Assembly: GCA_934373295.1 (NCBI GenBank)
Contig: CAKROK010000001.1
Span: 19,030 to 83,029 of the forward strand
Length of the DNA: 64,000 nt
DNA from: an uncultured Christensenellaceae bacterium
GTDB lineage: Bacteria > Bacillota > Clostridia > Christensenellales > Christensenellaceae
Direction of reading: 5' to 3'
Below, piece after piece: positions 2,133 through 43,825 of this stretch (position 1 is its first letter; each line of letters starts with the position of its first letter). Under the pieces are notes generated by a model that worked only from the letters and a program-made list of their open reading frames with translations, ran no database searches and was not told the DNA's origin. The position numbers and the translations under genes were made by a program.

Positions 2133-2164
2133 GATAAAAAAGCGCACTCGGAAAATTCCTCGCA

Positions 2165-2199
2165 ACTCAAAAACGGGCTTTATTCCCTAAAACCCGTTT
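2165..2199 (-). terminator. Intrinsic terminator overlapping the Fic stop codon
   Basis: The minus strand reads AAACGGG-loop-CCCGTTT followed by TTTTGAG. The hairpin includes the last codons of the Fic ORF. Confidence 0.5.
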
Positions 2200-2953
2200 C
2201 ACTGACTTCATTTTTAGACTTGACATAGCCAAATACGTTCTCCATCTCCGCAAGCTCCGCCTTGCAGATGAGGTATACCATGCCGGATATATCCTGCTTA
2301 TTTTTAAAATCCCTGAATGACCTGCGGTATTTTGAAGTGCTTGATATATTCACGGGCAGAAAGCCGTTGTTTATGAGCTGCTGATTTAGCAGCATCCTCC
2401 CCGTTCTGCCGTTTCCGTCCATAAACGGATGGATATACTCAAACTCTATATGCCGCTTCGCCAGCTCTATGAGCGCTTCTTCCTTATTATAAATCTCATT
2501 GAGCGTCCGAGCATAGCTCCTCATAAGCTCCGGCACTTTTGAAAAATCGGGCGGATAATATACCGCATCTATTTTATTTGCAATATAGACATTTTCACCT
2601 CTGTACGCCGCCTTTTTGACGTTTAATATCTTCCTGTTTACCTCTTTTATCCATTCCTCGGTGATATCCCTGCCCCTCGGGTCGAGCAAGGATATCGCCG
2701 AAAATAGCCGCTTTGCTTCTTCGTATTCCGAGTACTTATGTCCCGCCCTCACCTCATCATAATCTATTAGCCAAACCGTTTCCTCCAAAGAAAGCGTATT
2801 TCCCTCAAGGTGGTTGGATGACCAACAGAACTGATAGCTGAAATTTTCATAGTACGGCTTGTGAATAAGAGGGTCTTTAAAATAACTCATCACTTCAGGC
2901 AGCTTGGATATAATTTGCTCAATATATTTTGAATTGTCAAACATCATTTTCAA
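2180..2953 (-). CDS. Fic family protein (class II, with an intramolecular inhibitory helix)
   Basis: It carries the canonical Fic motif HPFMDGNGRTGR (HxFx[DE]GNGRxxR, nt about 2400-2435). Upstream is SNHLEG, matching the [ST]xxxE[GN] inhibitory motif (nt 2802-2819). Confidence 0.9.
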   Translation of the reverse strand: MKMMFDNSKYIEQIISKLPEVMSYFKDPLIHKPYYENFSYQFCWSSNHLEGNTLSLEETVWLIDYDEVRAGHKYSEYEEAKRLFSAISLLDPRGRDITEEWIKEVNRKILNVKKAAYRGENVYIANKIDAVYYPPDFSKVPELMRSYARTLNEIYNKEEALIELAKRHIEFEYIHPFMDGNGRTGRMLLNQQLINNGFLPVNISSTSKYRRSFRDFKNKQDISGMVYLICKAELAEMENVFGYVKSKNEVSETGFRE

Positions 2954-3111
2954 ATCACCTTTTTCGCGGTTTCCAACGCTCGCCTTTCTCGGGCTTTTAT
3001 TTGCATCATGAATAATAACCCGGTATTTCAGCTATCTGATGCTATTAAGTATACCCTAAATGCTATAAAGTGTCCACATCGCAACGAACTTTTGAATAAT
3101 TCTTTTTTTAC

Positions 3112-3143
3112 ACAAAATCCCTCTCCAAACCGGAAAGGGATCC
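3112..3143 (-). terminator. Candidate intrinsic terminator of the GH2 gene
   Basis: The minus strand reads ATCCCTTTCC-GGTT-TGGAGAGGGAT (one mismatch) followed by TTTTG, about 20 nt after the stop. Confidence 0.45.
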
Positions 3144-3162
3144 TGTATTTTCATTTATTCGC

Positions 3163-3675
3163 TTATTTCTTAGTTGTAACCGTCTTTGCCTTGGACCATG
3201 CGGAGTAGACGTTATAGCTCTTTGCGCCTATCTTTGTGGTCTTATAGCTCCTGACCCTTACGTAATACTTCGCGGACGCCTTGAGCTTGGTCACCGTCTT
3301 TGAAGTCGTCGTGTACTTGGCTATCGTCGCAGTCTTTGTCGTCTTTGCCGTGAACTTGGAGGACGTCGAGTACTGTACCTGATAGCCCGTTACGTAGCTC
3401 TGCTTTGCCCATGTAGCCTTGAAGCCCTTGGAGAGCGCCGTCAGCTTGGATACGCTCATCTGCTTGCCGCGGATAGCGAACGTGAGCGTCTTTGTGCCGG
3501 TATAATTGCCCTTCATCGTGACTTTTACGGTGTACGTACCCGGGAGCTTTCTGCCGGAAGCATAGCTGACCGTGTAATTGGAGGAAGCGATCTTCTTGCC
3601 GTCGGCATCCGTCACCGTGACAGCGGGCTTTTTGACCTTGCCGTCATATGTATACAGCGTCGCAGCGAGCTTTAC
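3163..3675 (-). repeat. 513-nt direct repeat, copy 1 (shared C-terminal module of the two glycosidases)
   Basis: It aligns codon for codon and without gaps to 12209-12721, with 12 substitutions in 170 residues by my manual count. Long identical nucleotide runs include CCTTGAAGCCCTTGGAGAGCGCCGTCAGCTTGGATA. Confidence 0.9.
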
Positions 3676-6600
3676 GTTTAACGTATTGACGTTTATCTTT
3701 TCCGGCTCGTTTATCGTTATCAGCCTTAGCGCCGTCAAATCGCGATTCTGCGTACTCGTGACCTTTATTATCACCTTACCCGCGCTGATGGGGGTCAGTA
3801 AGCCGTTCTGGTCTATCGTCGCCTTGCCCGTGAAGTCGATGACCTCCCAAGCGACGTCATTATTGAGCGACTCGGGATAGGTCACGGCGGTATATTGCTC
3901 AGGCTTTCCTATTGTTGCAACGTCCGCGCCGTCTATGCCCTTTATCTCTTTCGCCCTGACGTCTATCTCGTGCGTCGCGGCGAGCTTGCCGTCCGCCGTC
4001 TTTGCGGTTATTACCGCGTGACCCACGCCGATGGCCTTTATCATGCCGAAAGAGCCTACCGTAAGCACGTTTTCATCTGAGCTTGACCAAACTATCTTTC
4101 CTTCATAGCCTTCGTCAGAAACCTTCGCAGTGAGCTTGGCTATCTGACCGAGATATATCTCATTTACGCCCGATATGCTCATCATGCTGTCCTCGGGCAG
4201 GTTTGCGTAGGGAATATATCTTATAGCATCCAGCGCGACCATATATCCCGTTGACTTGGGATTCTTAAACCCGAGAGAATCGCCCGTGACTATGCGCAGA
4301 GTATGCTTGCCCTGCTTGACTATGCCCGTATCAAACGCGATTACCTTGCTGATGAGCGTGCCCGAATACGTGTCCATATATCCTATGAACTCGCCGTCGA
4401 GGTATATCTTCGCCTTGCCCATCTCGCGGTTTGTCGATACGATTATCTGCGCACGGCTGCCGTTGAATGTGAACGTCGCTTCGGCGCTGTTAAGATATGT
4501 CTCATCGCCGCCAATGCACCTCGTTCCGCCGTAGCCCGTAGAAGAGCCCTTGATATACTTTATCTGCGCGGCGTGGTCGTTTACGGTTATCCAGTTGTCC
4601 TGCGTCTCCTCACCGATGTACTTTATCGCATCGAATGCGAGCATCGTGCCGGTAGAGGCGTCGTTCTTCTCGCCCTCGACCTTTAGGGTTATCTTGTGTT
4701 CGCCGTAGCCTATTATGCCCGAATCGAATCCTACAAACGCCCTCTTGATGGAGGGAGAATACGTGTCGGCATATCCCACGAACTTATCATCGAGATAGAC
4801 CTTGCCCTTTCCTAACTCGCTGTTCGCGGTGAATATGAGCTGTACTCTTTCACCCTTGAAGGTGTAGCTTAGCTCGCTTCCCGCGTTTAAGTACATCTCG
4901 TCGCCGTTCACAAGCTCCGTGGAATGACCGTAGCCGTTGGAGTAATTGCCCCAATAGGTGATGTCGTTATCGTGATCGTTCACCACGACAAAGCCGCCGC
5001 CCGCGCTTATCGTCTCAAAGCGGATGAGGGGGACCATCGTGCCGGTAGAAGCGTCGTTCTTGTCGCCGTTTATGACGAGCTTTACGTTATGCGTGCTGTC
5101 CGTCAGCTTGTCCGTGCCAAACAGCTCGACGTTCGGCTCATAGCTGGGCGCATATGCGTCCGCATAGCCTATCAGCTCGCCGTCTACGTATACCGCCGCT
5201 TTGCCCAGCTCGGAATTCTTGTTGCCGAATATCTTTAAGGAATAGCCGTCAAAGCTGAAAGTGACCTCGTTATCAGGATTCGTGAGCTTCGCGCCGTCGT
5301 AGTCGTATGCGATACCGGGGTTAGAGTACGTCACGAATTCGCTGTTCGCGGCGATGCTCCTCGACGTCTCATAGCCCTGGCTCTGTGAGTTGGAGGCTAT
5401 GAATCTGCGTAAAGGTACCATGCCCACGCCCGTCGAAGCGGGGTTCTTGTCGCCCTTTATCATGAGCTTTAAGGTATGCGTACCCTGCTCAAGCCCGTCT
5501 ATTCTGTAAAGCTCCGTGTCCAGCTCGAGAGATGCGGAATATGCATCCATATCGCCGTGCTTAACGCCGTCCACGTATACCTCTGCACGGCCGAGCTCGA
5601 CGTTCTTATCGCCCATTATGCGCAGACTCATGCCCTTGAATTTGAGCGTGACCTCGTTATCGGGATTAACGTACTTTCCGCCGTCAAAGTCATATGCCAC
5701 TCCGGGATTGGTGAAGGTCGCCTCGGATACGTAGTAGACCGTTTCCTTATCCGTATCCTCCTCCGGGTCGGCGGTTATCTCAAAGCGCCTTATCGGGACC
5801 ATGCCCGTGCCCGTGGACGCCTCGTTCATGTCGCCCTTTACCTCTATTCTGAGGGAGTGCTCCGCGTTTGCGAGTCCGGAAATTCTGAATATCTCTACAT
5901 CCGGCATGTACGACGCCGCATACGTGTCGATATCGCCCACGAAGTTGTTATCTACATATACCGCCGCCTTGCCGCACTCGGAATTCTTGTTTCCGAATAT
6001 CTTTAACATGCTGCCCGTAAAGCTCATTGTCACGATATTTTCGGGGTTAATGAGCTTCGCGCCGTCGTAGTCATACGCGATAGAGCCGTTAGAATAGCTT
6101 ACTGATTCATCCGATGCGGCTATCGTCGTCACCGTAGAATCCTTTATGCCGAGGTCGGATAAGCTCTTTTTGAGCTGCTCCTCATCCACCGCCGTGACTG
6201 CGGATGCGTGCTCATGGCCGTAATTCACGAGATTTAAGAGAAGTCTCTTGCAGTTTACGTTCATGTTATCCGTGAGCAGGTCGAGCGCATTTATCGTGTA
6301 ATAGCCGTTGAAGTACTTATAAGTACCCATGCCGATGCCGTTTGACGCGCCGCCCATCAGAGGCAGACCCTGCGCCATCATGACTAATACGTTAGTCTCC
6401 TCCGGCATGTCCATATCCACGAAATAGCCGTTGACGTCGCCGCTCTTATTAAACGAAGCCAACAGCTCCGTGCCGAACATCGCGGGGGATAACGCGCCCT
6501 GCTTCAATCCCGCAAAGAGGGTATCGCCCATCGCGATATGCTCCGCGTGATAAAGCGCGGACTGCTCACTGAAGCCGGTGTACTTCCTCCAGCTGCCCTT

Positions 6601-9456
6601 GTTCGTGCTGGGTATGCGGTTTAATCCCGCGCCTAAGCTGTCCTTATCGAGTATCGCGACATACGCGCCCGATGCCATCTTCTCATAAACCGCCTTCCAG
6701 AATGCGTCCGTCTGGGGTGCGTTCGAGCCGATAAGTATGACCTCGCCGTCCTTTTTCTCGGATGCGTTAAACTCGCTTACCGTCATGCCCTGCTCTTTAA
6801 ACAGCTCTGTGACGTCTTTCGGGAAATCGCCCGCGAGGGTGACCTCTTTTTCCTTAGCCGCGCCCGTATTGTCGATTATCTCAAATTCATAAGATGTGTT
6901 CGTGGGCTTATAGCCGTCGCTGTTGAGCTTAGCTTCAAAGGTATATCTGCCCGCAGCGAAATCCAGCTTGATGCTCTCGTCAAAGACCTCATACGCGAGA
7001 GGCGCTTTCGAGCCGCTCTCGACCTCAAACGCGACGTTCTTCTTCTCATAGACGGTCTTGCCGTCTGCGTCCTTTATCACAAAATCAGCAGAATAATCGC
7101 CCGCGGGGAGGACGTCCTCCGTCGCGATATTCGCCCTGAAGCGCTGTATGCTGCCCTTTTCCGCGGCAAATGAGGTGTTATCTAACAGATAAGCCCAGCA
7201 AAGCGGCGCGAACATGTCGGAGAATACCTCCTTTATACCCGTCTTCCAGTCGCGGAAGTTATCCATAAGGCCCTCGCCCAGGCTCTGCGCGTCCGAAAGA
7301 GAGGTCGCGCCCACACCGTTTAAGCGGCCATTTGCTCTGATGTAATTCATAAGAGCGTATCTCTGAAGAATGTTGTTGCTCTCAGAATCCTTGGTCACAT
7401 CCTCGGGCGTATCGTATATCTTATTTAAACCGTACTTATTATATATACTCGTTATTCCGTTAACTACATTATTCGAAAGACCTGTGGTCATGTAGCTGTT
7501 CGGGTCTGCCCCGTTGATCGTGCGCTTATAAGCGTCTAAGAATACGTTGGGCGTGTTGCCCGTTCCCGTTTCGCTTATAAACGTAGGCTGATCGCCGTCC
7601 TTGCCCAGCTTGTAGATGCTCTCATAGGCCTCATCCTCAGAGAAGGGATAGTTGGGATAGAAATGTACGTCACCAGGAGAATCGGCCTTTTCTCCCTCGC
7701 CGCCCAGCATGACGTCCCATGTAGTCGAGCCGGAGTTTGAAAAGCTGCCGTAGGAATAATCCCTGTCCCATCTTCCTGAGCTGAAGCAGACGAGCCTTGT
7801 CTCGTCGTATTCACGCAGCTCGGTCAAATACTTCCTCGCCTTGTTCGTCCTCGCGTCGGACGCGTTTACTTCGTTTAAAAAGCCCCAAATAGCCACTGAG
7901 GGGTGGTTTCTGTCCCTTATGACCATCTTGGTATACATCTCGCTGTCCCAGTGGTTCATGCCCAGCCAGCTCTGCGAGCTTTCCTCATAGGCGAGCATAC
8001 CCACCTCGTCACAATAGTCGAGCACCTCGGGCATTATGGACATCGCGATAGACCTGAAGCAGTTAAAACCCGCTGCTTTAAGCTGATCAATACCCTTAAA
8101 CTGATATGTCAGATCTCTCGGGCTGCCCTGGAAGGTTATCGGGTCATAGCAGTTCTGATGCGTCGTCTTAAGCATGAAGCGCTTTCCGTTGAGATAGAAA
8201 TAGCCGTCCTTCATCTCGATATGCCTGAAGCCCATGCGCTCGACAGAATACGTCTGTGTGTTTCCGCCCGTCACTGCGGTCACGTCAGCGTAATAGAGAT
8301 TCGGGTTTTCAGTATCCCACAGCTTGAAATTATCGATGGTATAGTCAAGCTCGACCACGCTCTTGCCCTTGGGGAGGTCCTTTGTTAGCTTGTCCGTCGC
8401 GCCTAACTTTGCGCCCTTAAACTCGCCGTATACTGCAAAGAGATCAGTCTGCGCCTGCGCGCCCGTGGTGTTATTAACCGTTATCTCCAGCGCGACCTTG
8501 CCCGTGAGCCAGTCCGTCTTTGCGTAAACGTCCTCGATAAACACGCCGCCGCGCGTCAGGAGATTTACGTCCTGCCAAATGCCGCCGGCGTCCCAAAACG
8601 CGGGATATTCCGAATAGGACGCGACCTTGCACATGCCCGCGGGGTTATAGACCTTAACGGCTAAGAAGTTCTCACCGTCCTTTAAGACGTCTGTCACGTC
8701 AAACTCAAAGGGAACGTCCGAATTGTCGTTTGAGCCCAGCTTTTCGCCGTTCAGATATACGTCCGCGAGGCACTGCACCGCGTCAAACCTTATGAACTGC
8801 TTCATGCCCTCGCCCGCTTTTTTCGCGGTAAACTCCTTGGCATACCACGTATAGCCGTTATAGCTCGGATATGTCTCATAGATGTTTCCGGGGACTAAAA
8901 TGAGGTCGGACTGCGCGGGATATTTTATCTTCGCGGAATAATCGGATTCACCGCCCGGATCCTTTACTATCTTCCACGCGCCGTTTAAGGTCATCTCCGT
9001 AAAATCGCCCGCAGAAGAATCAAACTTGACCTGTGCGACGTTTATGGGATGCTTGTCCCCCGCCGCCTTTGAGTTCACAAGGAAGGACTTGCCTACGCCT
9101 AAGATGTGGATGCCCTCATCGAGCTTTGTCGAAAAAACAAGCTCCTTTTCGCCCTGCTCGGCATAGAGGTCAATCTCTTTTGCGAAAATGCCGTCGACAT
9201 ACACCTTGACCTTGCCCATCTCGGGGCCGGTCACGGCGTAATACTCTACAGACGTGCCGGTGAACTTGCATTCAAAAAATGCATCCTGCGCATCTGCGGA
9301 GTAAACTCCGTCCTGTTCGCTCCAATCTCCGGTAAACGTGAAGTTTTCCGGCGTTGCATCTGTCGCTTCCGCCAAAACCGTCGTCATATTGGCAAACGCC
9401 GCTATGAACAACATCAATAAGCAGAGAACAAATGCGATCGATCGTTTTCTGTTCAT
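3163..9456 (-). CDS. Giant secreted multi-modular glycoside hydrolase, family 2 catalytic region (about 2097 aa)
   Basis: The signal peptide is MNRKRSIAFVLCLLMLFIAAFANMTTVLA. The GH2 sugar-binding region is RFDAVQCLADVYLNGEKLG...FEFDVTDVL, with barrel motifs IRDRNHPSVAIWGFLNEV and FISETGTG. Six copies of an unassigned beta-sandwich module, two Big_2-like domains and an MBG/Ig-like plus FN3-like C-terminus follow. I moved the start from GTG 9513 to ATG 9456, which has AGGAGG 9 nt upstream. Confidence 0.85.
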   Translation of the reverse strand: MNRKRSIAFVLCLLMLFIAAFANMTTVLAEATDATPENFTFTGDWSEQDGVYSADAQDAFFECKFTGTSVEYYAVTGPEMGKVKVYVDGIFAKEIDLYAEQGEKELVFSTKLDEGIHILGVGKSFLVNSKAAGDKHPINVAQVKFDSSAGDFTEMTLNGAWKIVKDPGGESDYSAKIKYPAQSDLILVPGNIYETYPSYNGYTWYAKEFTAKKAGEGMKQFIRFDAVQCLADVYLNGEKLGSNDNSDVPFEFDVTDVLKDGENFLAVKVYNPAGMCKVASYSEYPAFWDAGGIWQDVNLLTRGGVFIEDVYAKTDWLTGKVALEITVNNTTGAQAQTDLFAVYGEFKGAKLGATDKLTKDLPKGKSVVELDYTIDNFKLWDTENPNLYYADVTAVTGGNTQTYSVERMGFRHIEMKDGYFYLNGKRFMLKTTHQNCYDPITFQGSPRDLTYQFKGIDQLKAAGFNCFRSIAMSIMPEVLDYCDEVGMLAYEESSQSWLGMNHWDSEMYTKMVIRDRNHPSVAIWGFLNEVNASDARTNKARKYLTELREYDETRLVCFSSGRWDRDYSYGSFSNSGSTTWDVMLGGEGEKADSPGDVHFYPNYPFSEDEAYESIYKLGKDGDQPTFISETGTGNTPNVFLDAYKRTINGADPNSYMTTGLSNNVVNGITSIYNKYGLNKIYDTPEDVTKDSESNNILQRYALMNYIRANGRLNGVGATSLSDAQSLGEGLMDNFRDWKTGIKEVFSDMFAPLCWAYLLDNTSFAAEKGSIQRFRANIATEDVLPAGDYSADFVIKDADGKTVYEKKNVAFEVESGSKAPLAYEVFDESIKLDFAAGRYTFEAKLNSDGYKPTNTSYEFEIIDNTGAAKEKEVTLAGDFPKDVTELFKEQGMTVSEFNASEKKDGEVILIGSNAPQTDAFWKAVYEKMASGAYVAILDKDSLGAGLNRIPSTNKGSWRKYTGFSEQSALYHAEHIAMGDTLFAGLKQGALSPAMFGTELLASFNKSGDVNGYFVDMDMPEETNVLVMMAQGLPLMGGASNGIGMGTYKYFNGYYTINALDLLTDNMNVNCKRLLLNLVNYGHEHASAVTAVDEEQLKKSLSDLGIKDSTVTTIAASDESVSYSNGSIAYDYDGAKLINPENIVTMSFTGSMLKIFGNKNSECGKAAVYVDNNFVGDIDTYAASYMPDVEIFRISGLANAEHSLRIEVKGDMNEASTGTGMVPIRRFEITADPEEDTDKETVYYVSEATFTNPGVAYDFDGGKYVNPDNEVTLKFKGMSLRIMGDKNVELGRAEVYVDGVKHGDMDAYSASLELDTELYRIDGLEQGTHTLKLMIKGDKNPASTGVGMVPLRRFIASNSQSQGYETSRSIAANSEFVTYSNPGIAYDYDGAKLTNPDNEVTFSFDGYSLKIFGNKNSELGKAAVYVDGELIGYADAYAPSYEPNVELFGTDKLTDSTHNVKLVINGDKNDASTGTMVPLIRFETISAGGGFVVVNDHDNDITYWGNYSNGYGHSTELVNGDEMYLNAGSELSYTFKGERVQLIFTANSELGKGKVYLDDKFVGYADTYSPSIKRAFVGFDSGIIGYGEHKITLKVEGEKNDASTGTMLAFDAIKYIGEETQDNWITVNDHAAQIKYIKGSSTGYGGTRCIGGDETYLNSAEATFTFNGSRAQIIVSTNREMGKAKIYLDGEFIGYMDTYSGTLISKVIAFDTGIVKQGKHTLRIVTGDSLGFKNPKSTGYMVALDAIRYIPYANLPEDSMMSISGVNEIYLGQIAKLTAKVSDEGYEGKIVWSSSDENVLTVGSFGMIKAIGVGHAVITAKTADGKLAATHEIDVRAKEIKGIDGADVATIGKPEQYTAVTYPESLNNDVAWEVIDFTGKATIDQNGLLTPISAGKVIIKVTSTQNRDLTALRLITINEPEKINVNTLNVKLAATLYTYDGKVKKPAVTVTDADGKKIASSNYTVSYASGRKLPGTYTVKVTMKGNYTGTKTLTFAIRGKQMSVSKLTALSKGFKATWAKQSYVTGYQVQYSTSSKFTAKTTKTATIAKYTTTSKTVTKLKASAKYYVRVRSYKTTKIGAKSYNVYSAWSKAKTVTTKK

Positions 9457-9580
9457 TAAATGCTTCCTCCTGTTTATTTTTATAGCAATCATAATGCTAT
9501 GAAAACTTTTCACTGTGATTAAAGCTACTGTTAATAAAATACGATGCTGTTTTATTTCTTCTCGTTAATTTATATCAAAT

Positions 9581-9611
9581 ATTATACCCCCCCCCCCTGT
9601 TTTTTTGTCAA
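9581..9611 (-). promoter_or_regulatory. Consensus sigma-A promoter of the GH2 gene with a 19-nt spacer containing G11
   Basis: The minus strand reads TTGACA (9611-9606), AAAAAACAGGGGGGGGGGG (19 nt), TATAAT (9586-9581). Both hexamers are perfect consensus, and the ATG lies about 117 nt downstream. Confidence 0.7.
9587..9597. repeat. Homopolymer C11 (G11 on the coding strand of the GH2 gene)
   Basis: Read directly: ATTATA CCCCCCCCCCC TGTTTTTTTGTCAA. Confidence 0.95.
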
Positions 9612-9805
9612 TACGCTATGATTTAATTTTATTATACTATACAATTTCCCCATAAAACAAGCAGTCTTACCTATTTTTTCATTAAAATCTCCGTGAGCGC
9701 GCGTCATATCATGAGTTGTTAATTTTTTGACAATATCGCTCTTTTGAGGTCATGCCGGCATTACCGCTTATCACGCTTTTTCGTAACTTTTTAATACTAT
9801 CGCAT

Positions 9806-9835
9806 TTGTCGTTCGCCATAATAATGTGGTATAAT
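9806..9835 (+). promoter_or_regulatory. Candidate extended -10 promoter for the 698-aa gene
   Basis: TGGTATAAT (TG at 9827-9828, TATAAT at 9830-9835) with a weak -35 TTGTCG at 9806-9811 and an 18-nt spacer. Confidence 0.4.
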
Positions 9836-9894
9836 CCGTTAAAGGCATTTCACACCACATATCTAATGCCATAGTTCAAAAAAAGGAGCTTACT

Positions 9895-11991
9895 TTGACC
9901 ATGAAAATCAAATTCAAACAGCTTATAGCATTGACCGCGGCGTTTATCGTCCTTTTAAGCGTATTTTCCGTCGCATATGCCAAGACAGGCTATGAGAGCA
10001 TCAAGGATTGGGAAAAGCTGCGCGATGAATGCGGCAGTATAACGGCTTACAGGGAAGTTCTCGAAAGCCTCCCGAACGAATATAAGGACTATTTCGGCGA
10101 ATACTCCTTCTGGGTACTCGACCTCGATTCCGACGACATCGACGAGATGATAGTCGCGATGACCTCGCTTGAGGGCAGCGAGCAGCTTCTCGTATACACA
10201 TATAATAACGACGACGGCGCAAAGCTGCTCTTTAAGACCTCGCCGCCCGTCCCCATAAGATACGGCTTTTTCAAGACGGCTAAAGGCGCGCCCATGTATT
10301 CCATAGTGACCTCCACGGGAACGGGCGATATCGAGGAGGGCGAGCTCAGCCTCGCAAAAAATATAAAAAAGCTGCTATATAAAAAGACGAACACATACTC
10401 AATGGCCACGGGCGGCGGCTCTAAGTATAAAAAAAGGATCGAGGTCGATGGCTATTTCGGCGATGAAAAATACCTCGATTGGGGCCCGCTCGAATATAAG
10501 CAAATAGTAAATCACGACTTTAAGCTGGGCGTGGATAACTTCTCATTCGGTCACAACAGAAATCATGAGGTGAGCGCATTCACGGACATCGACTATAGAG
10601 AGGTCACGGACGAGCAATATGAGGACCTGACGAGCGGCAAGGGAGCATCTCATAAGGCGCTCATTGACGAGTATCTAAAGAGCGGCCCGGGCATCTGCTA
10701 CGGCACGAACACACTTATGGACATCGTCAAAAATGGCGACATGGCCGCTTCCGAGCTCGAGCCGGATGCAAAAAGCACGTTTGAGCTAAAAAAGCCCAAC
10801 GAGGATGAAAAGCTATATTGCTCTTTAAACTACCTCCATGCGTTTCAATACGATCCCGAGATAGAGTATGATTATTCGATGGATATCGGCAAGATTTTCC
10901 GTTTCGGTTTTAAGGACGATCTAAAGGCGCTCGTGAAGTCAATATCCCCTAAAAAGCAGCAGACGTTCAACTACCTGATGAGAGATGAGGGCGGACATTC
11001 CATACTCATCATCGGGCTTGACTATTTTAAGTCGCTCGGAGTGTACAGGATAACTCTATATGACCTCAACTCCATCTCGGACGGCACGCGCGAGGGCTAT
11101 TTCAGCTATATGTTCATAAACGACGATTTTTCGGAGTTTGTCCTAAAGGATGAAGGTAAGCTCAAAACCGAAGATGATTTAAGAGGGCTGTTTATTCAGG
11201 ACATGGGTCAGGTCATCAAGCTCGCCGATAAATCCCTCATAATAGGCGGCGGAGACCTCGATGAAGGTGAAAAGCACGATTCGACCGCGGATGACAAAAA
11301 CGACGAAAAGACCGAGAATACCGAGAATAAGGACTCGACGGACAATATCGCAACGGTGAGCTATTGCCCGAACAGCACCGATTTCAAGGTCGTTTCGGAT
11401 GCAGGCACGCTAACGGTTACGGACGGCATACCGACATCTAATGATTTTGAGGTTAAGAGCTATGCATCTCTGCTCTCGGGCGAGGGCATCACAGGTTCCG
11501 GATACATTTGCGCGCAGATACCCGCCGCAGACGGCTATACTATTGAATCATCCGGCGCAGTCGATATAAAGCTCATGACGGACGCCGAATACTACACGCT
11601 TAAAGCGGACAAGCTGACGAACGCCGTGCTGTCTGATGGAAGCATAGATGCAGACGGGCTTAACGGCAGCTTTGAGGCGGGCGCCCTCGCAAAGAGCGGG
11701 CTCGTGAAGCTGTACGGTCAAGCGGAATCCGACATTAAGCTGACGAGGCAGCACGACGATTTGACGTTCTCCTCCACCGCCGCGGCAAACGTAAGCACGG
11801 TGGAATTCTACGGAAACAACACGGTTAAAACTTACACCGATTTGGGCGATAAAAGCGAGCTGAAGCTCTCACAGGATGATATGAACAACACAGGCTTGCC
11901 CGTAATACTGCTTGTCGCCATAATACTTGCCGCCGCAGTCATACTCGCCGTCGTCATCCTGATAATAGTAAAAAAGAGACGCGCAAAATAG
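9895..11991 (+). CDS. Membrane-anchored extracellular protein of unknown function (signal peptide plus C-terminal TM anchor)
   Basis: The N-terminal signal is KQLIALTAAFIVLLSVFSVAYA. The C-terminus is a hydrophobic helix followed by KKRRAK. There is an acidic linker DSTADDKNDEKTENTENKDSTDN. GGAG lies 6 nt before TTG 9895, and ATG 9901 is an alternative start. Confidence 0.8.
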   Translation: MTMKIKFKQLIALTAAFIVLLSVFSVAYAKTGYESIKDWEKLRDECGSITAYREVLESLPNEYKDYFGEYSFWVLDLDSDDIDEMIVAMTSLEGSEQLLVYTYNNDDGAKLLFKTSPPVPIRYGFFKTAKGAPMYSIVTSTGTGDIEEGELSLAKNIKKLLYKKTNTYSMATGGGSKYKKRIEVDGYFGDEKYLDWGPLEYKQIVNHDFKLGVDNFSFGHNRNHEVSAFTDIDYREVTDEQYEDLTSGKGASHKALIDEYLKSGPGICYGTNTLMDIVKNGDMAASELEPDAKSTFELKKPNEDEKLYCSLNYLHAFQYDPEIEYDYSMDIGKIFRFGFKDDLKALVKSISPKKQQTFNYLMRDEGGHSILIIGLDYFKSLGVYRITLYDLNSISDGTREGYFSYMFINDDFSEFVLKDEGKLKTEDDLRGLFIQDMGQVIKLADKSLIIGGGDLDEGEKHDSTADDKNDEKTENTENKDSTDNIATVSYCPNSTDFKVVSDAGTLTVTDGIPTSNDFEVKSYASLLSGEGITGSGYICAQIPAADGYTIESSGAVDIKLMTDAEYYTLKADKLTNAVLSDGSIDADGLNGSFEAGALAKSGLVKLYGQAESDIKLTRQHDDLTFSSTAAANVSTVEFYGNNTVKTYTDLGDKSELKLSQDDMNNTGLPVILLVAIILAAAVILAVVILIIVKKRRAK

Positions 11992-12014
11992 CCGCGCAAA
12001 AAACTGACTAATGT

Positions 12015-12052
12015 AAAAAATCCTCCGTCGTAATTGACAGAGGATTTTTTCG
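12015..12052 (+). terminator. Intrinsic terminator of the 698-aa gene
   Basis: AAAAAATCCTC-loop-GAGGATTTTTT lies 24 nt after the stop. Confidence 0.7.
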
Positions 12053-12208
12053 TTTTTGTAGTAATAGTTTTAGCCTTTTGCCCCCATGTTCATCCACGAA
12101 AGAGGGGGAAAACACACCATATTTACTTATTTTTAAGTAGTAACGGCTTTTGCCTTTTACCACCGTGTTCACTCCCCCGCAAGGGGGAGTGAATCACATC
12201 ATTCTTAC
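12053..12208 (-). repeat. Two decayed tandem copies of the 3' end of the adjacent glycosidase gene, each followed by a hairpin
   Basis: Units at about 12053-12126 and 12127-12208 both resemble 12209-12255. Compare GTAGTAACGGCTTTTGCCTTTTACCACCGTGTTCAC with GTTGTTACTGCTTTCGCCTTAGACCATGCGGAGTAAAC. Each unit ends with TTA plus a GTAA(G/A)AATGATGTG-like spacer. Confidence 0.6.
12170..12191. other. Perfect 9-bp GC-rich hairpin with a GCAA tetraloop and no U-tract
   Basis: CACTCCCCC GCAA GGGGGAGTG lies 18 nt downstream of the GH36-like gene stop. Confidence 0.6.
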
Positions 12209-12721
12209 TTATTTTTTCGTTGTTACTGCTTTCGCCTTAGACCATGCGGAGTAAACGTTATAGTTCTTTCCGCTTATCTTGGTGGTCTTGTAGCTTCTAA
12301 CTCTTACATAGTACTTCGTAGAAGCCTTGAGCTTGGTTACCGTCTTAGAGGTAGTCGTGTACTTGCTTATCGTCGCAGTCTTGGTCGTCTTTGCCGTGAA
12401 TTTCGAAGATGTCGAGTACTGTACCTGATAACCGGTCACGTAGCTCTGCTTTTTCCACGTCGCCTTGAAGCCCTTGGAGAGCGCCGTCAGCTTGGATACC
12501 GTCATCTGCTTGCCGCGGATAGCGAACGTGAGCGTCTTTGAGCCGGTGTAGCTGCCCTTCATGGTGACCTTTACGGTGTACGTGCCGGGGAGCTTTCTGC
12601 CGGAAGCGTAGGTCACGGTGTAGTTGGAAGAAGCTATCTTCTTTCCGTTTGCATCCGTCACCGTAACAGCGGGCTTCTTGACCTTGCCGTCATAGGTATA
12701 CAGCGTCGCCGCTAACTTGAC
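12209..12721 (-). repeat. 513-nt direct repeat, copy 2
   Basis: See copy 1 at 3163-3675. Same orientation, about 9 kb apart. Confidence 0.9.
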
Positions 12722-15700
12722 CTTGAGCTTGCTTATATTCACCTTGGGTCTGACCGTTGCAGTAAACTGCTTTATCGCGCCTATCGAGCCGTTGTCCTTG
12801 GATATCGCCACTACTACGATAGTTCCCACGCTGTTCGCCTTTAACGCGCCGTCTATTATCGCCGCGTCGCCCGACATCACGAACGCCTCATATGCCTTGT
12901 TCGTGGCATTTTCGGGATATACGCCCACATCCAGCTTAACCGCCTCGCCAACGTATATATTGGGCGAATTGAGTATCTTCATGGATTCGACGCCTATGTT
13001 CTCGATAGTAACGGTTATCTCGTCAAAGACGTTTTCGTTCGCGTCGCTCGCCGCCCTGACGGTCACCTTGCCCGCCTTGACCGCCGTGAGCAGTCCGTTT
13101 TCGTCTATCGTCGCCTCGCCCGTCACGGGTGTGACAGACCAAACTATCTTCTGGCTCGCCTCCTCGGGGAGGATGGCCGCCGTGTACTGCGCAGTCTGCC
13201 CTATTTTAACGGTATCGGGGCCTTCGAGAACGACCGCCGCCGCTTCATAGTCCTTTAAGTACATAAATGCGTCAACTACGATCAGCGTACCCGTCGAAAG
13301 CGAGTTCTTGGTGTTTGTCGGGACGATCTTGATAGTGTGCTTGCCCGGGTCAAGCATTGCGCTTTCGAACACTACCTGCTGTTTGAGCAAGGAGGATGAA
13401 TACCAATCCGCCGTCGTTATCTTTTGCCCATCGATAAAGATATCCGCCATGCCAAGGTCGACGTTCGTAGCGCTTATCACCCTTACCATCGTGCCTTCAA
13501 AGGTAAATTCGGCATATTCCCTTATTATCGTCTCGTCGCCGTTGATATATCCGCCGCCGCCCGAGCCTGCGCCGCTGCCTGCGCCGTATTTTATGCTCTC
13601 GTCCGTGTCGTTTACGCAAATGAACGCGTCGTCGCTGACCTTTTCTGTGACCGTCACCTCGACGCTGCCCTCAATGCCGCTGCCGTCCGTCGCCCTGGCC
13701 GTTATAGTGACCTTTCCGGGCTTATGCGAGGTGATGTATCCCTGCGCATTTACGGACGCGATGCGGTTATCAGAGCTTAGCCAGATAACGTCGCAGTTTG
13801 ATGCGTTTATAGGCGTTATATCTGCTAAAAGCTTCGCGGTCTCCGCTAACTTCATGTTGACTGTTCCGCGAATTTCTATCTTTTCGACGCCTACGCCCTG
13901 CGTCTTTTCCTTTAACCAGACTATCTCGGAATCGTATTCCTTATCCATGCGGACGAGTATGCCGTCCTTCATGAGCTTTTCGCCCGTCGCGGTCACGTTT
14001 AAGTCGGTGTTGTCCTCAAAGGTCACCTCATATGTCGCGCCTGCCTTGAGGCCGTCGGGATATATCACCTTTTCCGTCTCGCTCTTTTTACCGGGGCGGA
14101 ACAGGACTATAGAGCCCATGCCTATCTTTTCATTATAATATTCAAGACCATCCCAGTTGACTCCATCGGGAGAGGGCAGTATGTGGTAAACGTCGCAGTT
14201 TCTTAAAATCTGCCTCTGCTTCGCGTTATATATCGCGTATGTCTCCTTGGCTACCTCTATCTGATGATCGGTAAAGCCGGAAAGCGTCGTCGACGGGCAA
14301 ACCATCATCGCGCCCATCAAACCCGTTCTTAAAGAATAATAATCCCATGCGTTCTGATCCGAATATGTTCCTTCAAGCGGCGGCCAGTCAATGGAATTAT
14401 CCACCTTTAATTGAACGGGGTTGATCATATAAGAATCCGCATATGCAACATTCCTGTGAGCAAGCGCCCTGCCGCTATCCTCCGTCGTCATGAACGTCAT
14501 GCGTTCAAGCGAGGTGAAGTCCTTTAACGCGCCGCCGCCCGAACAGTGCTCATAACGGAAGTTTGGCAGCTCGCTGTCGTTTATGAGCTGATCTAACACC
14601 CACATGAAGCCTTCATGAGAGGCGTAGTTGTTCGTTGCATCCGGCCCTTCAAGGTTGAAATCGCTTCTATAATAGTCGATATTCCACTCCTTGAGCCTGT
14701 ATTTGAGTGCTCCAAGGTTCTTACTCCTGCCGTTCCAATCCGCAATAGATGTATCCTCATATGTCTGGCACATATATAGCGTCATCTTCATACCGTATGA
14801 ATGTGCGAGATCACCCAAAATCATACCATTGGGCCATTTCGTGGGGTAAGGATTCCATTTTGACTGAAGCTCGGGTACAAAGCTGCCATCTGAGGGCGGG
14901 CTGTTAGGTACAGTCCACCAGTAATCCTGCTTTAAGAGTTGAACTCCCCAACTCGCGACATCATGCTCGGAGAGATAAGTCGTCCACTCCTCCTCGGAGT
15001 TAAATGGAAGGTGCAGCTCGACGAGCGGTTCATTCTCGTTTTCGCGCATTGTCTTTGTCATTCTGTGATTCCAATACCAGCTCTTCATCCTATTAGAGCC
15101 GTTATCTATCGAACCTTTGTACGCGCCGAAGAACATTCCGGGGATGACGAGATTATCGTCCGCATCCGCAACGCCGTCGCCGTCCTTATCGCCTGCATCT
15201 AACTTTCTCGTGACATTGCCACTGCTGCCCAGCGTCGCCTTGACCCTTATTTTGAGCGGGTCATCCTGCGTTTCGACAGTCATGTCGCCAAAGCTCCAAT
15301 AATAGCCGTAGTATAATCCCTGGCCGCTGCTCGTCTGCAAGAGCTGGAAGGGCAGCCTGTGATTTCCGTTCCATACGGACACGTTAGTCACGTTTGAGCT
15401 ATGCTCAAAGCCGCTGTCTATGACCTCCTCATACACCTTGCTCGTCATGTCAGACCCTGTATAGCTGCGCTTTTCAAAGTACGTGAGCGTGGTCTGGGAG
15501 TCCGCCGTGAGCACTATGTCACCCGATACTATGTCCGCATATTTGAACGTGAGCGTTTCACCCGATTTGTTCTCGATCTCCGCCCAATACTGTATGGGGC
15601 CGTTTTCGCCGGGATAAGCCTGCCAATATGCGGTCAGCTCCATCGCGGGGTCGGCGTTCGTGAACTTTATCTTTAACAGCTTGCCGTCCTTTTCGTCTAT

Positions 15701-17728
15701 CTCTTTTCCAGCATATTTCCAATCCGTTGCCTTGCCGTTGACGGCGCCCACTAAGGGCATCTCCTGCGCCTCGGCGGGGGTTATCCACTTATGACCGGTA
15801 TCAAGAGCTGTAAGCTCCTCAATATACTGTTTATCACCATCAATCGCAATGGTCATAGACGTATCGGCAGATGAAAGAACCGTGCGCTCGGCGTTTTCGG
15901 AGAGAACCGTTCCGTCCTGCTCATAGTAGTTGGACGCCTTGTCGAGATACAGCCCGTCGAATATCGCCGCGCCGCCCGTCGTGTTCAGCTTTATAGAAGT
16001 GGATCTCGCGCTGCCGCTGTTAAATACGGTGGAAACGCGCTCCCATTCGCCCTGTTTTGTCGTATTTATTTTAACGTCGCCGTCTAACGCGGATATCTGC
16101 GCCGTCGCTCCGGAAAGCGCCTTGACCCATCCCGTCAGAATGTAATCCGTGTTTGCGGCTATGGCAACGTTATCGGAGGTCGCCGCCGCGGCGTCATCCG
16201 AAAGAAGCAGAGCCTTTTTGCCAACATATGCGTCGTCCGTTATGCTCGCGCCGTTTTCTATCTTCCAGTTTTCAGCGTGATATGATGTATAATAGCCCTC
16301 AAAGGTTCCGTTTTTGACGAGATTATCGCCGTTCGTGGTGATAGCCGCCTGGCGCAGAGATACCTCGTCAATGTACGCCGTGTTTACCGTTCCGTCCGTT
16401 TCGGGATGCACCACCGCCCTGACGGTTATCTCTGTATGACTTCCACTGTACCAGAAACCGGACATCAATATCCAATAATCGTCTTTGTAGCCGTCGTGAT
16501 TATATGTCGTGCTTTCGAGCTGGACCTCGCCTTCAGCGTCGTTCATGTCGATATACGCCGTCGCCGTCTTGGGCGCACCTGTGAGGTAGACCCATGCGGA
16601 GAATACATACTGTGTATTTGGCGTGACCGCGATGGGCTTTCCACCGTTAGCCACGGCTATCGCATCGCCCGCAGTTCCCGCGCTCATTGCTGATTTAAAC
16701 GAGTATTTGTCGCTCTTTCCCTTGTTCGTCGCTATCGCCGCATTTTCGTTAAGCTCCCACTGGCCGAGCGAGAAATCCGGGTCGGGAATGAGATTTTCCT
16801 GAACGTCCGCCTTTACGAGCGAGACGTTATCCACCATCGCCTTGCTGCCGTCGTTTATAGAGGATGTGGCGTTGTCCCAGTTGCCCTCGGTGACTATTCT
16901 GACAGTCGTAGACGTGTTCGAGCCGGAGTACCATAAGCCCGCGAGGTGTTCCCACTCTTTTACCTTGTGTCCCCTCAATCTCATGTTTTCCGCCGTGGGG
17001 TACATGTCGATATAAGTCCACTTGCCGTTGCCGTAGCGATATATGTCAGCAGAATATATGTACCACGTGTTCTTTTCAACGGATACACTCTGGTTGATTA
17101 TCGCCGCATTGAGCGCCATTCCCTCGCCGCCGATAGCCGTCGCGTCCGATGTCGTGCCGCCGCTCCAGCCCGTCGTGCCGTTTTCAAAATCGCCGTTCTT
17201 TACAAGCTCTATCGCGGTGTCATACACTTCACAGATATTGACCTCGTCAAAAAGGACGTCTCCCTTTGCGGTCAATGTGATGGACGTTTTCTCGAGGTCG
17301 CCGGAGGAAAATTCCTTTGAATAATACACCCACGCTCCCGCGCCGTCCGCTTCTATAACGATATCCGTCCCGTCGAGCGCGATCTTTGCGACATCCGCCT
17401 GCGCGCTTTTCTTTATCCACGCGGAGACGATGTAGTTCTTCTTTTTCGCGAGCGCAATGTCGTCCGTCTTTGCTGTTCCCTCTGCGCCGCCCACGTATTT
17501 CAAGGCGTTTACGCCCTCTTTAACGTCGTCCGTTACGACCGTAAAGCCCTCGCCGAGCTGCCATCCGTCAAGGGATTTTGACGGCTCATGCGAGTCCTCA
17601 AAGGAACCGTTTTGCAGCAAGTTCTTCTGTCCGCCGGCCGCAAAGACCGCCGCTTCGCCCGATATCATAGCGGATATCACGAGAGCAAATGTCAAAAGAA
17701 ATGCAATTATACGTCTGTTTCTTTTCAT
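12209..17728 (-). CDS. Giant secreted multi-modular glycoside hydrolase, GH36-like (clan GH-D) catalytic region (about 1839 aa)
   Basis: It has a signal peptide MKRNRRIIAFLLTFALVISAMISGEAAVFA. Four CBM_4_9-like modules follow (NLLQNGSFED, LVKNGDFENGTTGW, NLVKNGTFEG). The core carries IDYYRSDFN, EHCSGGGALKD and TTEDSG, resembling the GH36 KWDMN, CSGGGGR and SDNTD motifs. It also has Big_2-like domains, one beta-sandwich module of the GH2-gene type, and the shared C-terminal module. I moved the start to ATG 17728, which has AAGGAG 6 nt upstream. Confidence 0.8.
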   Translation of the reverse strand: MKRNRRIIAFLLTFALVISAMISGEAAVFAAGGQKNLLQNGSFEDSHEPSKSLDGWQLGEGFTVVTDDVKEGVNALKYVGGAEGTAKTDDIALAKKKNYIVSAWIKKSAQADVAKIALDGTDIVIEADGAGAWVYYSKEFSSGDLEKTSITLTAKGDVLFDEVNICEVYDTAIELVKNGDFENGTTGWSGGTTSDATAIGGEGMALNAAIINQSVSVEKNTWYIYSADIYRYGNGKWTYIDMYPTAENMRLRGHKVKEWEHLAGLWYSGSNTSTTVRIVTEGNWDNATSSINDGSKAMVDNVSLVKADVQENLIPDPDFSLGQWELNENAAIATNKGKSDKYSFKSAMSAGTAGDAIAVANGGKPIAVTPNTQYVFSAWVYLTGAPKTATAYIDMNDAEGEVQLESTTYNHDGYKDDYWILMSGFWYSGSHTEITVRAVVHPETDGTVNTAYIDEVSLRQAAITTNGDNLVKNGTFEGYYTSYHAENWKIENGASITDDAYVGKKALLLSDDAAAATSDNVAIAANTDYILTGWVKALSGATAQISALDGDVKINTTKQGEWERVSTVFNSGSARSTSIKLNTTGGAAIFDGLYLDKASNYYEQDGTVLSENAERTVLSSADTSMTIAIDGDKQYIEELTALDTGHKWITPAEAQEMPLVGAVNGKATDWKYAGKEIDEKDGKLLKIKFTNADPAMELTAYWQAYPGENGPIQYWAEIENKSGETLTFKYADIVSGDIVLTADSQTTLTYFEKRSYTGSDMTSKVYEEVIDSGFEHSSNVTNVSVWNGNHRLPFQLLQTSSGQGLYYGYYWSFGDMTVETQDDPLKIRVKATLGSSGNVTRKLDAGDKDGDGVADADDNLVIPGMFFGAYKGSIDNGSNRMKSWYWNHRMTKTMRENENEPLVELHLPFNSEEEWTTYLSEHDVASWGVQLLKQDYWWTVPNSPPSDGSFVPELQSKWNPYPTKWPNGMILGDLAHSYGMKMTLYMCQTYEDTSIADWNGRSKNLGALKYRLKEWNIDYYRSDFNLEGPDATNNYASHEGFMWVLDQLINDSELPNFRYEHCSGGGALKDFTSLERMTFMTTEDSGRALAHRNVAYADSYMINPVQLKVDNSIDWPPLEGTYSDQNAWDYYSLRTGLMGAMMVCPSTTLSGFTDHQIEVAKETYAIYNAKQRQILRNCDVYHILPSPDGVNWDGLEYYNEKIGMGSIVLFRPGKKSETEKVIYPDGLKAGATYEVTFEDNTDLNVTATGEKLMKDGILVRMDKEYDSEIVWLKEKTQGVGVEKIEIRGTVNMKLAETAKLLADITPINASNCDVIWLSSDNRIASVNAQGYITSHKPGKVTITARATDGSGIEGSVEVTVTEKVSDDAFICVNDTDESIKYGAGSGAGSGGGGYINGDETIIREYAEFTFEGTMVRVISATNVDLGMADIFIDGQKITTADWYSSSLLKQQVVFESAMLDPGKHTIKIVPTNTKNSLSTGTLIVVDAFMYLKDYEAAAVVLEGPDTVKIGQTAQYTAAILPEEASQKIVWSVTPVTGEATIDENGLLTAVKAGKVTVRAASDANENVFDEITVTIENIGVESMKILNSPNIYVGEAVKLDVGVYPENATNKAYEAFVMSGDAAIIDGALKANSVGTIVVVAISKDNGSIGAIKQFTATVRPKVNISKLKVKLAATLYTYDGKVKKPAVTVTDANGKKIASSNYTVTYASGRKLPGTYTVKVTMKGSYTGSKTLTFAIRGKQMTVSKLTALSKGFKATWKKQSYVTGYQVQYSTSSKFTAKTTKTATISKYTTTSKTVTKLKASTKYYVRVRSYKTTKISGKNYNVYSAWSKAKAVTTKK

Positions 17729-17970
17729 CTTTTTCTCCTTTACATGTTTTTCATTATCCATTGGACAATATAAATTTCGAGTAATCGATTACATTTTAAC
17801 TTGACATTCAGAACGGCACTATAAAATGTCTAAAAACCCCGTTAAACATCAATGTTTCACAGCATTAAGTGAAATGTTATCGAATACATGTATTTATTCT
17901 ATTATATTCAATAGGAGAAGTAAAATCAACAACTATTTTAAAAAAATATTATGTCATTTATCGTTTGATG

Positions 17971-40713: not shown

Positions 40714-40744
40714 ATTATAAACTCTATATCTATTGTAGAGTCAA
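40714..40744 (-). promoter_or_regulatory. MerR-type promoter: consensus hexamers, 19-nt spacer, centred inverted repeat
   Basis: The minus strand reads TTGACT (40744-40739), a 19-nt spacer, then TATAAT (40719-40714). The inverted repeat ACTCTA-N9-TAGAGT (40721-40741) spans the spacer. Confidence 0.7.
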
Positions 40745-43597: not shown

Positions 43598-43825
43598 ATG
43601 GAAAACCTCATAGAGATACTCGAAAACATTCAGCCGGACATCGATTACGATACCTGCACCGACCTTATAGACGGTCATCGTTTTGACTCTCTTTCCATCA
43701 TCTCGCTTATTTCGGAGTTAGAGGATGAATTTGACATAACCATCCCCGCCGTGGATATAATCCCCGCGAATTTCAACTCCGCGCAAGCTATCTGGAAGAT
43801 GATCTGCCGCCTTCAGGAGGATTAA
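43598..43825 (+). CDS. DltC-like acyl/peptidyl carrier protein (75 aa)
   Basis: The phosphopantetheine site is FDSLSIISLISELEDEF. I moved the start to ATG 43598, which has GGAG 9 nt upstream and lies 2 nt after the preceding stop. Confidence 0.8.
   Translation: MENLIEILENIQPDIDYDTCTDLIDGHRFDSLSIISLISELEDEFDITIPAVDIIPANFNSAQAIWKMICRLQED

Follow-up and report, generated by a model that had tools for sequence, protein, structure and literature searches.

A G11 homopolymer in the promoter spacer of a giant glycosidase gene as a candidate contingency locus in an uncultured gut Christensenellaceae bacterium

We analysed a 64,000-nucleotide (nt) stretch of DNA from an uncultured Christensenellaceae bacterium (contig CAKROK010000001.1 of assembly GCA_934373295.1, positions 19,030 to 83,029; hereafter the window), in which a run of eleven G residues (G11) makes up most of the spacer of a perfect -35/-10 promoter ahead of a gene for a 2097-amino-acid (aa) glycosidase of glycoside hydrolase family 2 (GH2). 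The interpretation we favour, to which we give equal weight for and against, is that G11, as a part of the spacer prone to slippage, governs how strong this sigma-A-type promoter is, so that the locus would work as a graded contingency switch. It draws on the architecture of the promoter, the reality and rarity of the tract, a difference in tract length between strains and a 17-nt spacer optimum in the family. Mechanistically, GH2 would be transcribed from these two hexamers, whose distance is set by the G run, and the gain or loss of single G residues at replication, at a slippage rate that we infer, would change promoter strength, and with it expression, heritably and reversibly within populations. 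G11, with its 19-nt spacer, would be a state of low promoter strength. Shortening to G10 and then G9 would bring the spacer to 18 and 17 nt and strengthen the promoter step by step, and longer tracts would weaken it further, such that the locus would act as a rheostat in the manner of Neisseria meningitidis porA, with the sampled populations mostly in the low state.

Promoter architecture, tract rarity and spacer length

Along the minus strand, which codes for GH2, the sequence reads catagcgta-TTGACA-AAAAAACA-GGGGGGGGGGG-TATAAT-atttgatata, and scripted coordinates divide the 19-nt spacer into AAAAAACA (9605-9598) and G11 (9597-9587). This is the layout reported by a first-pass annotation of the DNA, and we found its TTGACA, 19-nt spacer, G11 and TATAAT to be correct in every detail of coordinates and sequence. 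The promoter lies 124 nt upstream of the GH2 gene within an intergenic region of 444 nt (Table 1), and its homopolymer sits between -35 and -10, as it does in contingency loci of the porA/opc type.

Counting all runs of G or C in the window (G+C content 51%) revealed 19640 of 1 nt, 4348 of 2 nt, 1098 of 3 nt, 188 of 4 nt, 42 of 5 nt, 3 of 6 nt and a single one of 11 nt, such that G11 alone among the G/C runs of the 64 kb exceeds 6 nt, whereas a model of independent, identically distributed bases predicts 0.038 runs of at least 11 nt. Related loci from Clostridia and Christensenellaceae, fetched through pyrH and amounting to 1.295 Mb, held only two G/C runs of at least 8 nt, one G10 and one C8, and the tract thus stands out from the repeat spectrum of its own genome, as expected of a contingency locus. 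Perfect TTGACA-N14-21-TATAAT pairs are also scarce, with three on both strands of the window (128 kb). Because G11 is the only G/C run above 6 nt in the window and its relatives hold just two of 8 nt or more, placement of the tract by chance within the spacer of a perfect promoter is very unlikely. The annotation had further stated that a second giant glycosidase gene (1850 aa) has no such tract, and this extends to the whole window, where no other tract occurs, upstream of the 1850-aa gene or elsewhere. As a separate observation, the G10 among the relatives (L078, 20604-20613, in a rabbit-gut Clostridia metagenome-assembled genome (MAG)) is likewise preceded by a TTGACA (TTGACA-aaaattcccac-G10-caaagg), but has no -10-like hexamer at a usable distance and is located where the fetched locus ends.

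To place the 19-nt spacer in context, we scanned 286 kb (the window and 14 Christensenellaceae loci) for hexamer pairs matching the consensus at 11 or more of 12 positions, which revealed a peak at a spacer of 17 nt (19 hits), followed by 6 hits at 18 nt and 7 at 19 nt, with 1-3 hits at each length from 13 to 16 nt and 0-3 at each from 20 to 22 nt. Since near-consensus pairs peak at 17 nt, and most of the 17- and 18-nt pairs stand directly upstream of a ribosome-binding site (RBS) and an open reading frame (ORF), the usual 17-nt optimum holds in silico in Christensenellaceae and 19 nt is off-optimum, in agreement with the annotation's view that this spacer is too long. Three gene-proximal promoters in the window have 19-nt spacers, namely the GH2 site and those at 40744(-) and 43731(+), and the spacers of the latter two show no obvious dyad by eye.

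Two strong hexamers 19 nt apart are the hallmark geometry of MerR-family promoters (spacers of 19-20 bp), such as those at merT, copA, zntA and bmr, in which a DNA-twisting activator bound in the spacer realigns the hexamers, and it fits this model that one of the two further 19-nt promoters precedes an efflux gene. We nevertheless regard activator-dependent transcription of this type as very improbable here, and reject it for lack of a dyad and of a regulator: the spacer (9587-9605, A6-CA-G11) contains neither a dyad nor an inverted repeat, no MerR gene is adjacent, and the divergent neighbour, a gene for a 696-aa protein, encodes no helix-turn-helix or any other known domain. A spacer that reads at least 20 nt in other strains and varies among them would also be incompatible with a fixed operator.

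Tract length across assemblies and strains

G11 with identical flanks was recovered in five other metagenome assemblies, each from its own sample (L001, L002, L003, L009 and L010; Hadza ERZ4560875, ERZ28615101, ERZ28615318, ERZ27287066 and ERZ28615210), whose contig names follow three styles (NODE_, k141_ and scaffold_). All five match the window at 99.98-100% identity over 5-9 kb (0-1 single-nucleotide difference) and therefore belong to a single near-clonal lineage; the window itself may stem from the same source as one of the five samples. The length of homopolymers is prone to error and numerous contigs end close by, as would be expected of a poly-G artefact or a miscounted homopolymer; however, G11 in five other assemblies with three naming styles points to different pipelines and rules out an artefact of sequencing or assembly, whose chance we consider negligible, and the tract is moreover internal to contigs of 40-120 kb and carried by divergent strains too. 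What stands of the annotation's own caution about homopolymers is that the exact length could be one off in all assemblies, though only under a systematic bias, the existence of the tract being firm.

Divergent strains, retrieved by anchoring on variants of the 696-aa protein, showed 93-98% nucleotide identity to the window, and two of them, the 95% identical strains L014 and L015, bear on tract length. The Logan contig of L014 (SRR30938691) starts inside the tract as C12-AGCTTTTTTGTCAATACGC and that of L015 (ERR10101783) as C13-GTTTTTTTGTCAATACGC, which on the GH2 strand gives TTGACA-AAAAAGCT-G(12 or more) and TTGACA-AAAAAAC-G(13 or more), respectively, with the -10 side beyond the contig end in both. 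An A-to-G change on the GH2 strand extends the G run in L015. The -35 TTGACA is kept in both strains, whereas L008 contains its last 3 nt only, at a contig end. Because these strains read at least 12 and at least 13 nt against 11 in the window, tract length, as judged from assembled contigs, differs between strains, a polymorphism typical of contingency loci that is here read from contig ends for the longer values, with the -10 side unseen there. If TATAAT still abuts the tract, the spacer of L014 and L015 would be at least 20 nt, against 19 nt in the window.

None of 6 divergent-strain contigs crossed the tract. Those of L006 and L008 stop 12 nt short of it, at window position 9609, that of L011, which shares its sample with L006, begins at 9557, 24 nt past the -10 hexamer, and those of L102 and L013 begin at 9626 and 9769; these breaks are weakly suggestive of heterogeneous or hard-to-sequence tracts. 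A search for N-terminal GH2 fragments that would reach the -10 side of L014 and L015 returned nothing, looking up the exact proteins of pyrH and of the other members of the clusters yielded no further contig across the tract, and scans of JGI metagenomes with a tract-spanning pattern and with a tract-independent pattern from conserved intergenic sequence gave 0 hits each. Separately, the search with the first 250 aa of GH2 missed even the 100%-identical full-length cluster P0009, which reflects a limitation of the word index and not biology.

Contig breaks around the promoter could also be explained if the switch were an invertible segment. A perfect 11-nt inverted repeat (9428-9438 and 9799-9809, ACAAATGCGAT and ATCGCATTTGT) flanks a segment that comprises the promoter, the leader and the start codon of GH2, the right arm of the repeat overlapping the -35 of the divergent gene's promoter, and its arms are kept in those divergent strains whose contigs reach them, with one mismatch in L015. 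Inversion at this repeat, in place of slippage, would account for the several contigs that break inside the bracketed segment, yet the contig ends are scattered from 9557 to 9824 and do not fall at the arms, and the left arm lies inside the GH2 coding sequence. About 0.1 inverted repeats of 11 nt are expected per 1 kb, so a chance origin is plausible. The inverted junctions (AAGCAGAGAACAAATGCGATAGTATTAAAAAGTTA and AACAGAAAACGATCGATCGCATTTGTCGTTCGCCA) were absent from all fetched loci and the neighbouring ORFs that we tested included no recombinase, which leaves the inversion unsupported and, in our assessment, extremely improbable.

Returning to slippage in the spacer, several observations weigh against a working switch. 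All clonal-lineage assemblies spanning the tract, which come from at least five samples, showed G11, and tract lengths were read from assembly consensus sequences alone. No G9 or G10 allele (spacer of 17 or 18 nt) was seen in the assemblies, where all observed states have spacers of at least 19 nt. Clonal-lineage contigs also break at 9619, 9664, 9679, 9684 and 9824, which is 20-240 nt off the tract, and the breaks are therefore partly an effect of low coverage or AT-rich sequence and not specific to the tract. An uninterrupted run of 11-13 nt across about 5% divergence is not a strong sign of selection, and because two other gene-proximal promoters in the window have 19-nt spacers, such a spacer need not mean OFF; it may be weak rather than silent, possibly even reasonably active in this organism. 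A second promoter-like site, P2, lies 50 nt upstream of the tract promoter and could drive GH2 transcription independently of the tract. An invariant consensus within a clone does not itself refute switching, since at porA variants arise at about 2e-5 and unselected cultures retain the parental length. The phase-variable reading put forward by the first-pass annotation thus keeps its architecture, a real tract and the between-strain difference in length that the annotation had proposed to look for (11, at least 12 and at least 13), and lacks the shorter allele with a 17- or 18-nt spacer and any variation within the clone.

Many of these points would fit static tuning, in which the tract is fixed or drifts slowly, holds a consensus promoter low and changes in length on evolutionary time between strains, in place of switching often and reversibly inside a population. 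This is the main rival reading, and we consider it unlikely. It is in line with the invariance of G11 in the clone and the off-optimum spacer of every observed length, and the other 19-nt promoters in the window suggest that such spacing is tolerated, but a tract of G11-13 is intrinsically prone to slippage in all bacteria that have been tested, even where repair is proficient (about 2e-5 at porA; PMC3639595), and no homopolymer is needed to tune a promoter down. G/C runs are, moreover, otherwise purged from the genome, and two Logan contigs end inside the tract.

If GH2 were transcribed from P2 or from an activator-dependent site, the G run could be a bystander, a neutral or mildly deleterious product of slippage, located in the leader or in upstream DNA, with no regulatory effect. 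The P2 hexamers are kept in all five aligned strains, bar one change in L006, and conservation of TTGACA is unspecific given that the intergenic region as a whole is 91% conserved among strains. Against this stand the scarcity of perfect hexamer pairs and the correct placement and orientation of the tract pair before a large gene, together with the position, exactly between the hexamers, of the only long G/C run in the window, longest also in comparison with 1.3 Mb of relatives; the leader RNA, too, has no structure that involves the G run. A bystander tract is, in our judgement, distinctly improbable.

The GH2 gene and its neighbourhood

The GH2 protein matched the Pfam families Glyco_hydro_2_N, Glyco_hydro_2 and Glyco_hydro_2_C (PF02837, PF00703 and PF02836; sugar-binding, Ig-like and TIM-barrel) in the order that characterizes GH2 enzymes, within residues 196-566, and CE2_N, Big_2 and fn3 modules sit after this core. 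Matches in PDB and NCBIfam were to beta-galactosidases and beta-glucuronidases, all below equivalog cut-offs. Its N-terminus, MNRKRSIAFVLCLLMLFIAAFANMTTVLAEA, is signal-peptide-like and the product is predicted to be secreted or of surface type, as is common for contingency loci. The best start is ATG 9456, whereas gene callers elsewhere use ATG 9492 (2109 aa). Downstream, the hairpin and T-run after the stop codon are likely an intrinsic terminator, and the gene is therefore probably monocistronic.

Within the leader, an RNA element was ruled out: no Rfam family matched the leader region or the whole window, the predicted fold of the leader does not surpass that of shuffled sequences (z = 0.23), and the G run is unpaired in it. 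Another feature of the leader is a dyad, TTTTTATAGCA-7 nt-TGCTATGAAAA, at 9477-9505, about 10-40 nt upstream of the RBS and overlapping ATG 9492, which could be an operator or a small hairpin.

Table 1. Coordinates of the GH2 promoter, gene and leader, the divergent gene, and the other gene-proximal promoters with 19-nt spacers in the window.
Feature	Position	Strand	Remarks
-35 hexamer TTGACA	9606..9611	minus	Perfect consensus
Non-repeat spacer part AAAAAACA	9598..9605	minus	Read from window sequence
G11 homopolymer (C11 on plus strand)	9587..9597	minus	11 of 19 spacer nt; proposed slippage-prone element
-10 hexamer TATAAT	9581..9586	minus	Perfect consensus, without TG extension
Predicted transcription start	9572..9575	minus	From hexamer positions, about 7 nt past -10
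Predicted 5' untranslated region	9457..9574	minus	About 118 nt
Second promoter-like site P2, TTGTTT-18 nt-TATAAT	9631..9660	minus	50 nt upstream of tract promoter
RBS AGGAGG	9466..9471	minus	9 nt before ATG 9456
GH2-family glycosidase gene, 2097 aa	3163..9456	minus	Signal peptide, GH2 core, CE2_N, Big_2, fn3
Hairpin and T-run	3112..3143	minus	After GH2 stop codon; read directly, missed by simple scan
Divergent orphan gene, 696 aa	9901..11991	plus	N-terminal signal peptide or transmembrane segment; C-terminal transmembrane segment and KKRRAK
Predicted promoter of 696-aa gene, TTGTCG-18-TATAAT with TG	9806..9835	plus	About 210 nt from tract, no overlap
TTGACT-19-TATAAT	40744-40714	minus	34 nt before MATE efflux gene
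TTGACA-19-TATAAT	43731-43761	plus	67 nt before dltB-like gene

The second giant glycosidase, described as paralogous in the annotation, proved to have about 170 C-terminal aa in common with GH2, whereas the catalytic parts differ. At the nucleotide level, 517 nt at the 3' ends of the two genes (3162-3678 and 12208-12724) are 87% identical, and the common Ig/fn3-like module that they encode ends ...AWSKAKTVTTKK in both enzymes. A further repeat of 146 nt is internal to GH2 (5183-5328 against 5951-6096, 76% identity), and the two giant genes might recombine with each other through the 517-nt and 146-nt repeats. In the divergent strain represented by L011 and L006, the GH2 and 1850-aa genes are split, into ORFs of 697+174+1087+117 aa and 488+1266 aa, which are either pseudogenes or assembly indel errors. 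L011 (ERZ28759333) also lacks the Fic-domain gene between GH2 and pyrH (window 2140-3158).

The best match of pyrH among GTDB species representatives, at 89% aa identity, was to a different, uncultured Christensenellaceae MAG from Hadza samples, followed at 70-76% by other Christensenellaceae and Christensenella MAGs. The presence in the window of lon, mtaB, dltA/dltB and a gene for a penicillin-binding protein of PBP2 type is consistent with a Gram-positive-type member of the Clostridia, and the host, anticipated by the annotation to be of gut-type Clostridia, is by pyrH an uncultured human-gut Christensenellaceae. The species is rare in public data. The GH2 protein cluster has 6 sequences, with the next homologue only 47% identical, and the cluster of the 696-aa protein has 8 among 15 billion proteins; the latter protein had no Pfam or NCBIfam match and no relative in the GTDB species representatives, from which its locus is absent. 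In none of 80 related loci from species representatives (L016-L095) did the GH2, 696-aa, 1850-aa or Fic genes adjoin pyrH, and because the block 2180-17761 is absent next to pyrH in 80/80 of these loci, the glycosidase island appears to be lineage-specific.

Known systems and biological meaning

Homopolymer and simple-repeat tracts in promoters are well documented, for example at porA, opc, vlp, hif and Helicobacter pylori sabA; the mechanism proposed here is thus already known, and it is the host and the gene class that are new. In N. meningitidis strain 8047, porA has 11G between -35 and -10, surface expression falls 2- and 13-fold with 10G and 9G, and variants arise at about 2e-5 in repair-proficient cells, with unselected cultures holding the parental length only (PMC3639595). 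The GH2 promoter resembles porA, and also opc with its poly-C, in having a homopolymer of about 9-13 nt in the spacer, whose length in those two loci sets the spacer and with it graded expression, and the surface-exposed porA product finds its parallel in the predicted secreted or surface location of the GH2 product. The two systems differ in that 11G is the optimal, high state of porA, whereas G11 here gives a 19-nt spacer and a predicted low state, in that the host is a Gram-positive-type gut anaerobe and not a proteobacterial pathogen, and in that the gene encodes a 2097-aa secreted glycoside hydrolase in place of a porin or adhesin, with switching and its effect on expression predicted. 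Spacer repeats also control transcription through spacing at Mycoplasma hyorhinis vlp (poly-A) and Haemophilus influenzae hifA/hifB (TA), where the repeat is A or TA, unlike the G run described here; hif moreover consists of two overlapping divergent promoters, whereas the divergent promoter of our locus is about 210 nt away.

Among Firmicutes, Streptococcus pyogenes M28 carries a poly-T tract at Spy1336/R28-Spy1337 that is naturally polymorphic and in which indels of a single nucleotide (9T, 10T or 11T) set the transcript of a large surface protein at one of three levels (PMC7098570). Our tract shares with it, and with the upstream T tract of bca in group B Streptococcus, a Firmicute host and a position between divergent genes; it differs in lying between perfect hexamers, whereas the M28 tract alters the spacing of a direct repeat or regulator site and has an experimentally proven effect. 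In Bifidobacterium breve UCC2003, a G tract of a pilus locus was found by deep sequencing and is reported to be an ON/OFF switch that works by replication slippage (PMC9187656). Both organisms are gut commensals with a poly-G, which in B. breve controls a surface structure; B. breve, however, is an actinobacterium. Its tract is located within coding sequence, where it works by frameshift, and not in a promoter spacer.

Phase variation by simple sequence repeats has been described mainly in pathogens, and a recent review asks whether this is a real restriction or a bias of the databases (PMC11868660). Our literature search found no report linking Christensenellaceae with phase variation, and it surfaced no case from gut Clostridia of a glycoside hydrolase under the control of a repeat in a promoter spacer. 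The switches known from gut commensals are mostly invertible promoters, in Bacteroidales and Clostridioides. Seen against this background, the sequence evidence makes the tract a plausible candidate for the porA/opc class of promoter-spacer contingency loci, one whose host and gene class are both new. We tentatively extend this, with more doubt than belief, to a gut-commensal contingency locus in which GH2 would be near-silent in most cells (spacers of 19-21 nt) and strongly expressed in rare G10 or G9 variants, a form of bet-hedging for an enzyme that would be costly, degrade glycans and perhaps be exposed to phage or IgA. A signal peptide and Ig-like or fn3 modules, as found in GH2, are typical of phase-variable surface or secreted factors.

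Were there no switching, the locus would amount to an unusual, down-tuned promoter only. If the tract does switch, a giant extracellular glycosidase of a gut Christensenellaceae would be under stochastic and heritable control, such that cells of a single strain would vary in their capacity to degrade glycans, inventories of carbohydrate-active enzymes drawn from metagenomes would overstate expressed function, and homopolymer length would be worth calling in metagenomes. It would then stand as the first description, in gut Clostridia, of a carbohydrate-active enzyme governed by a simple-repeat promoter switch, and would carry phase variation by simple sequence repeats beyond pathogens.

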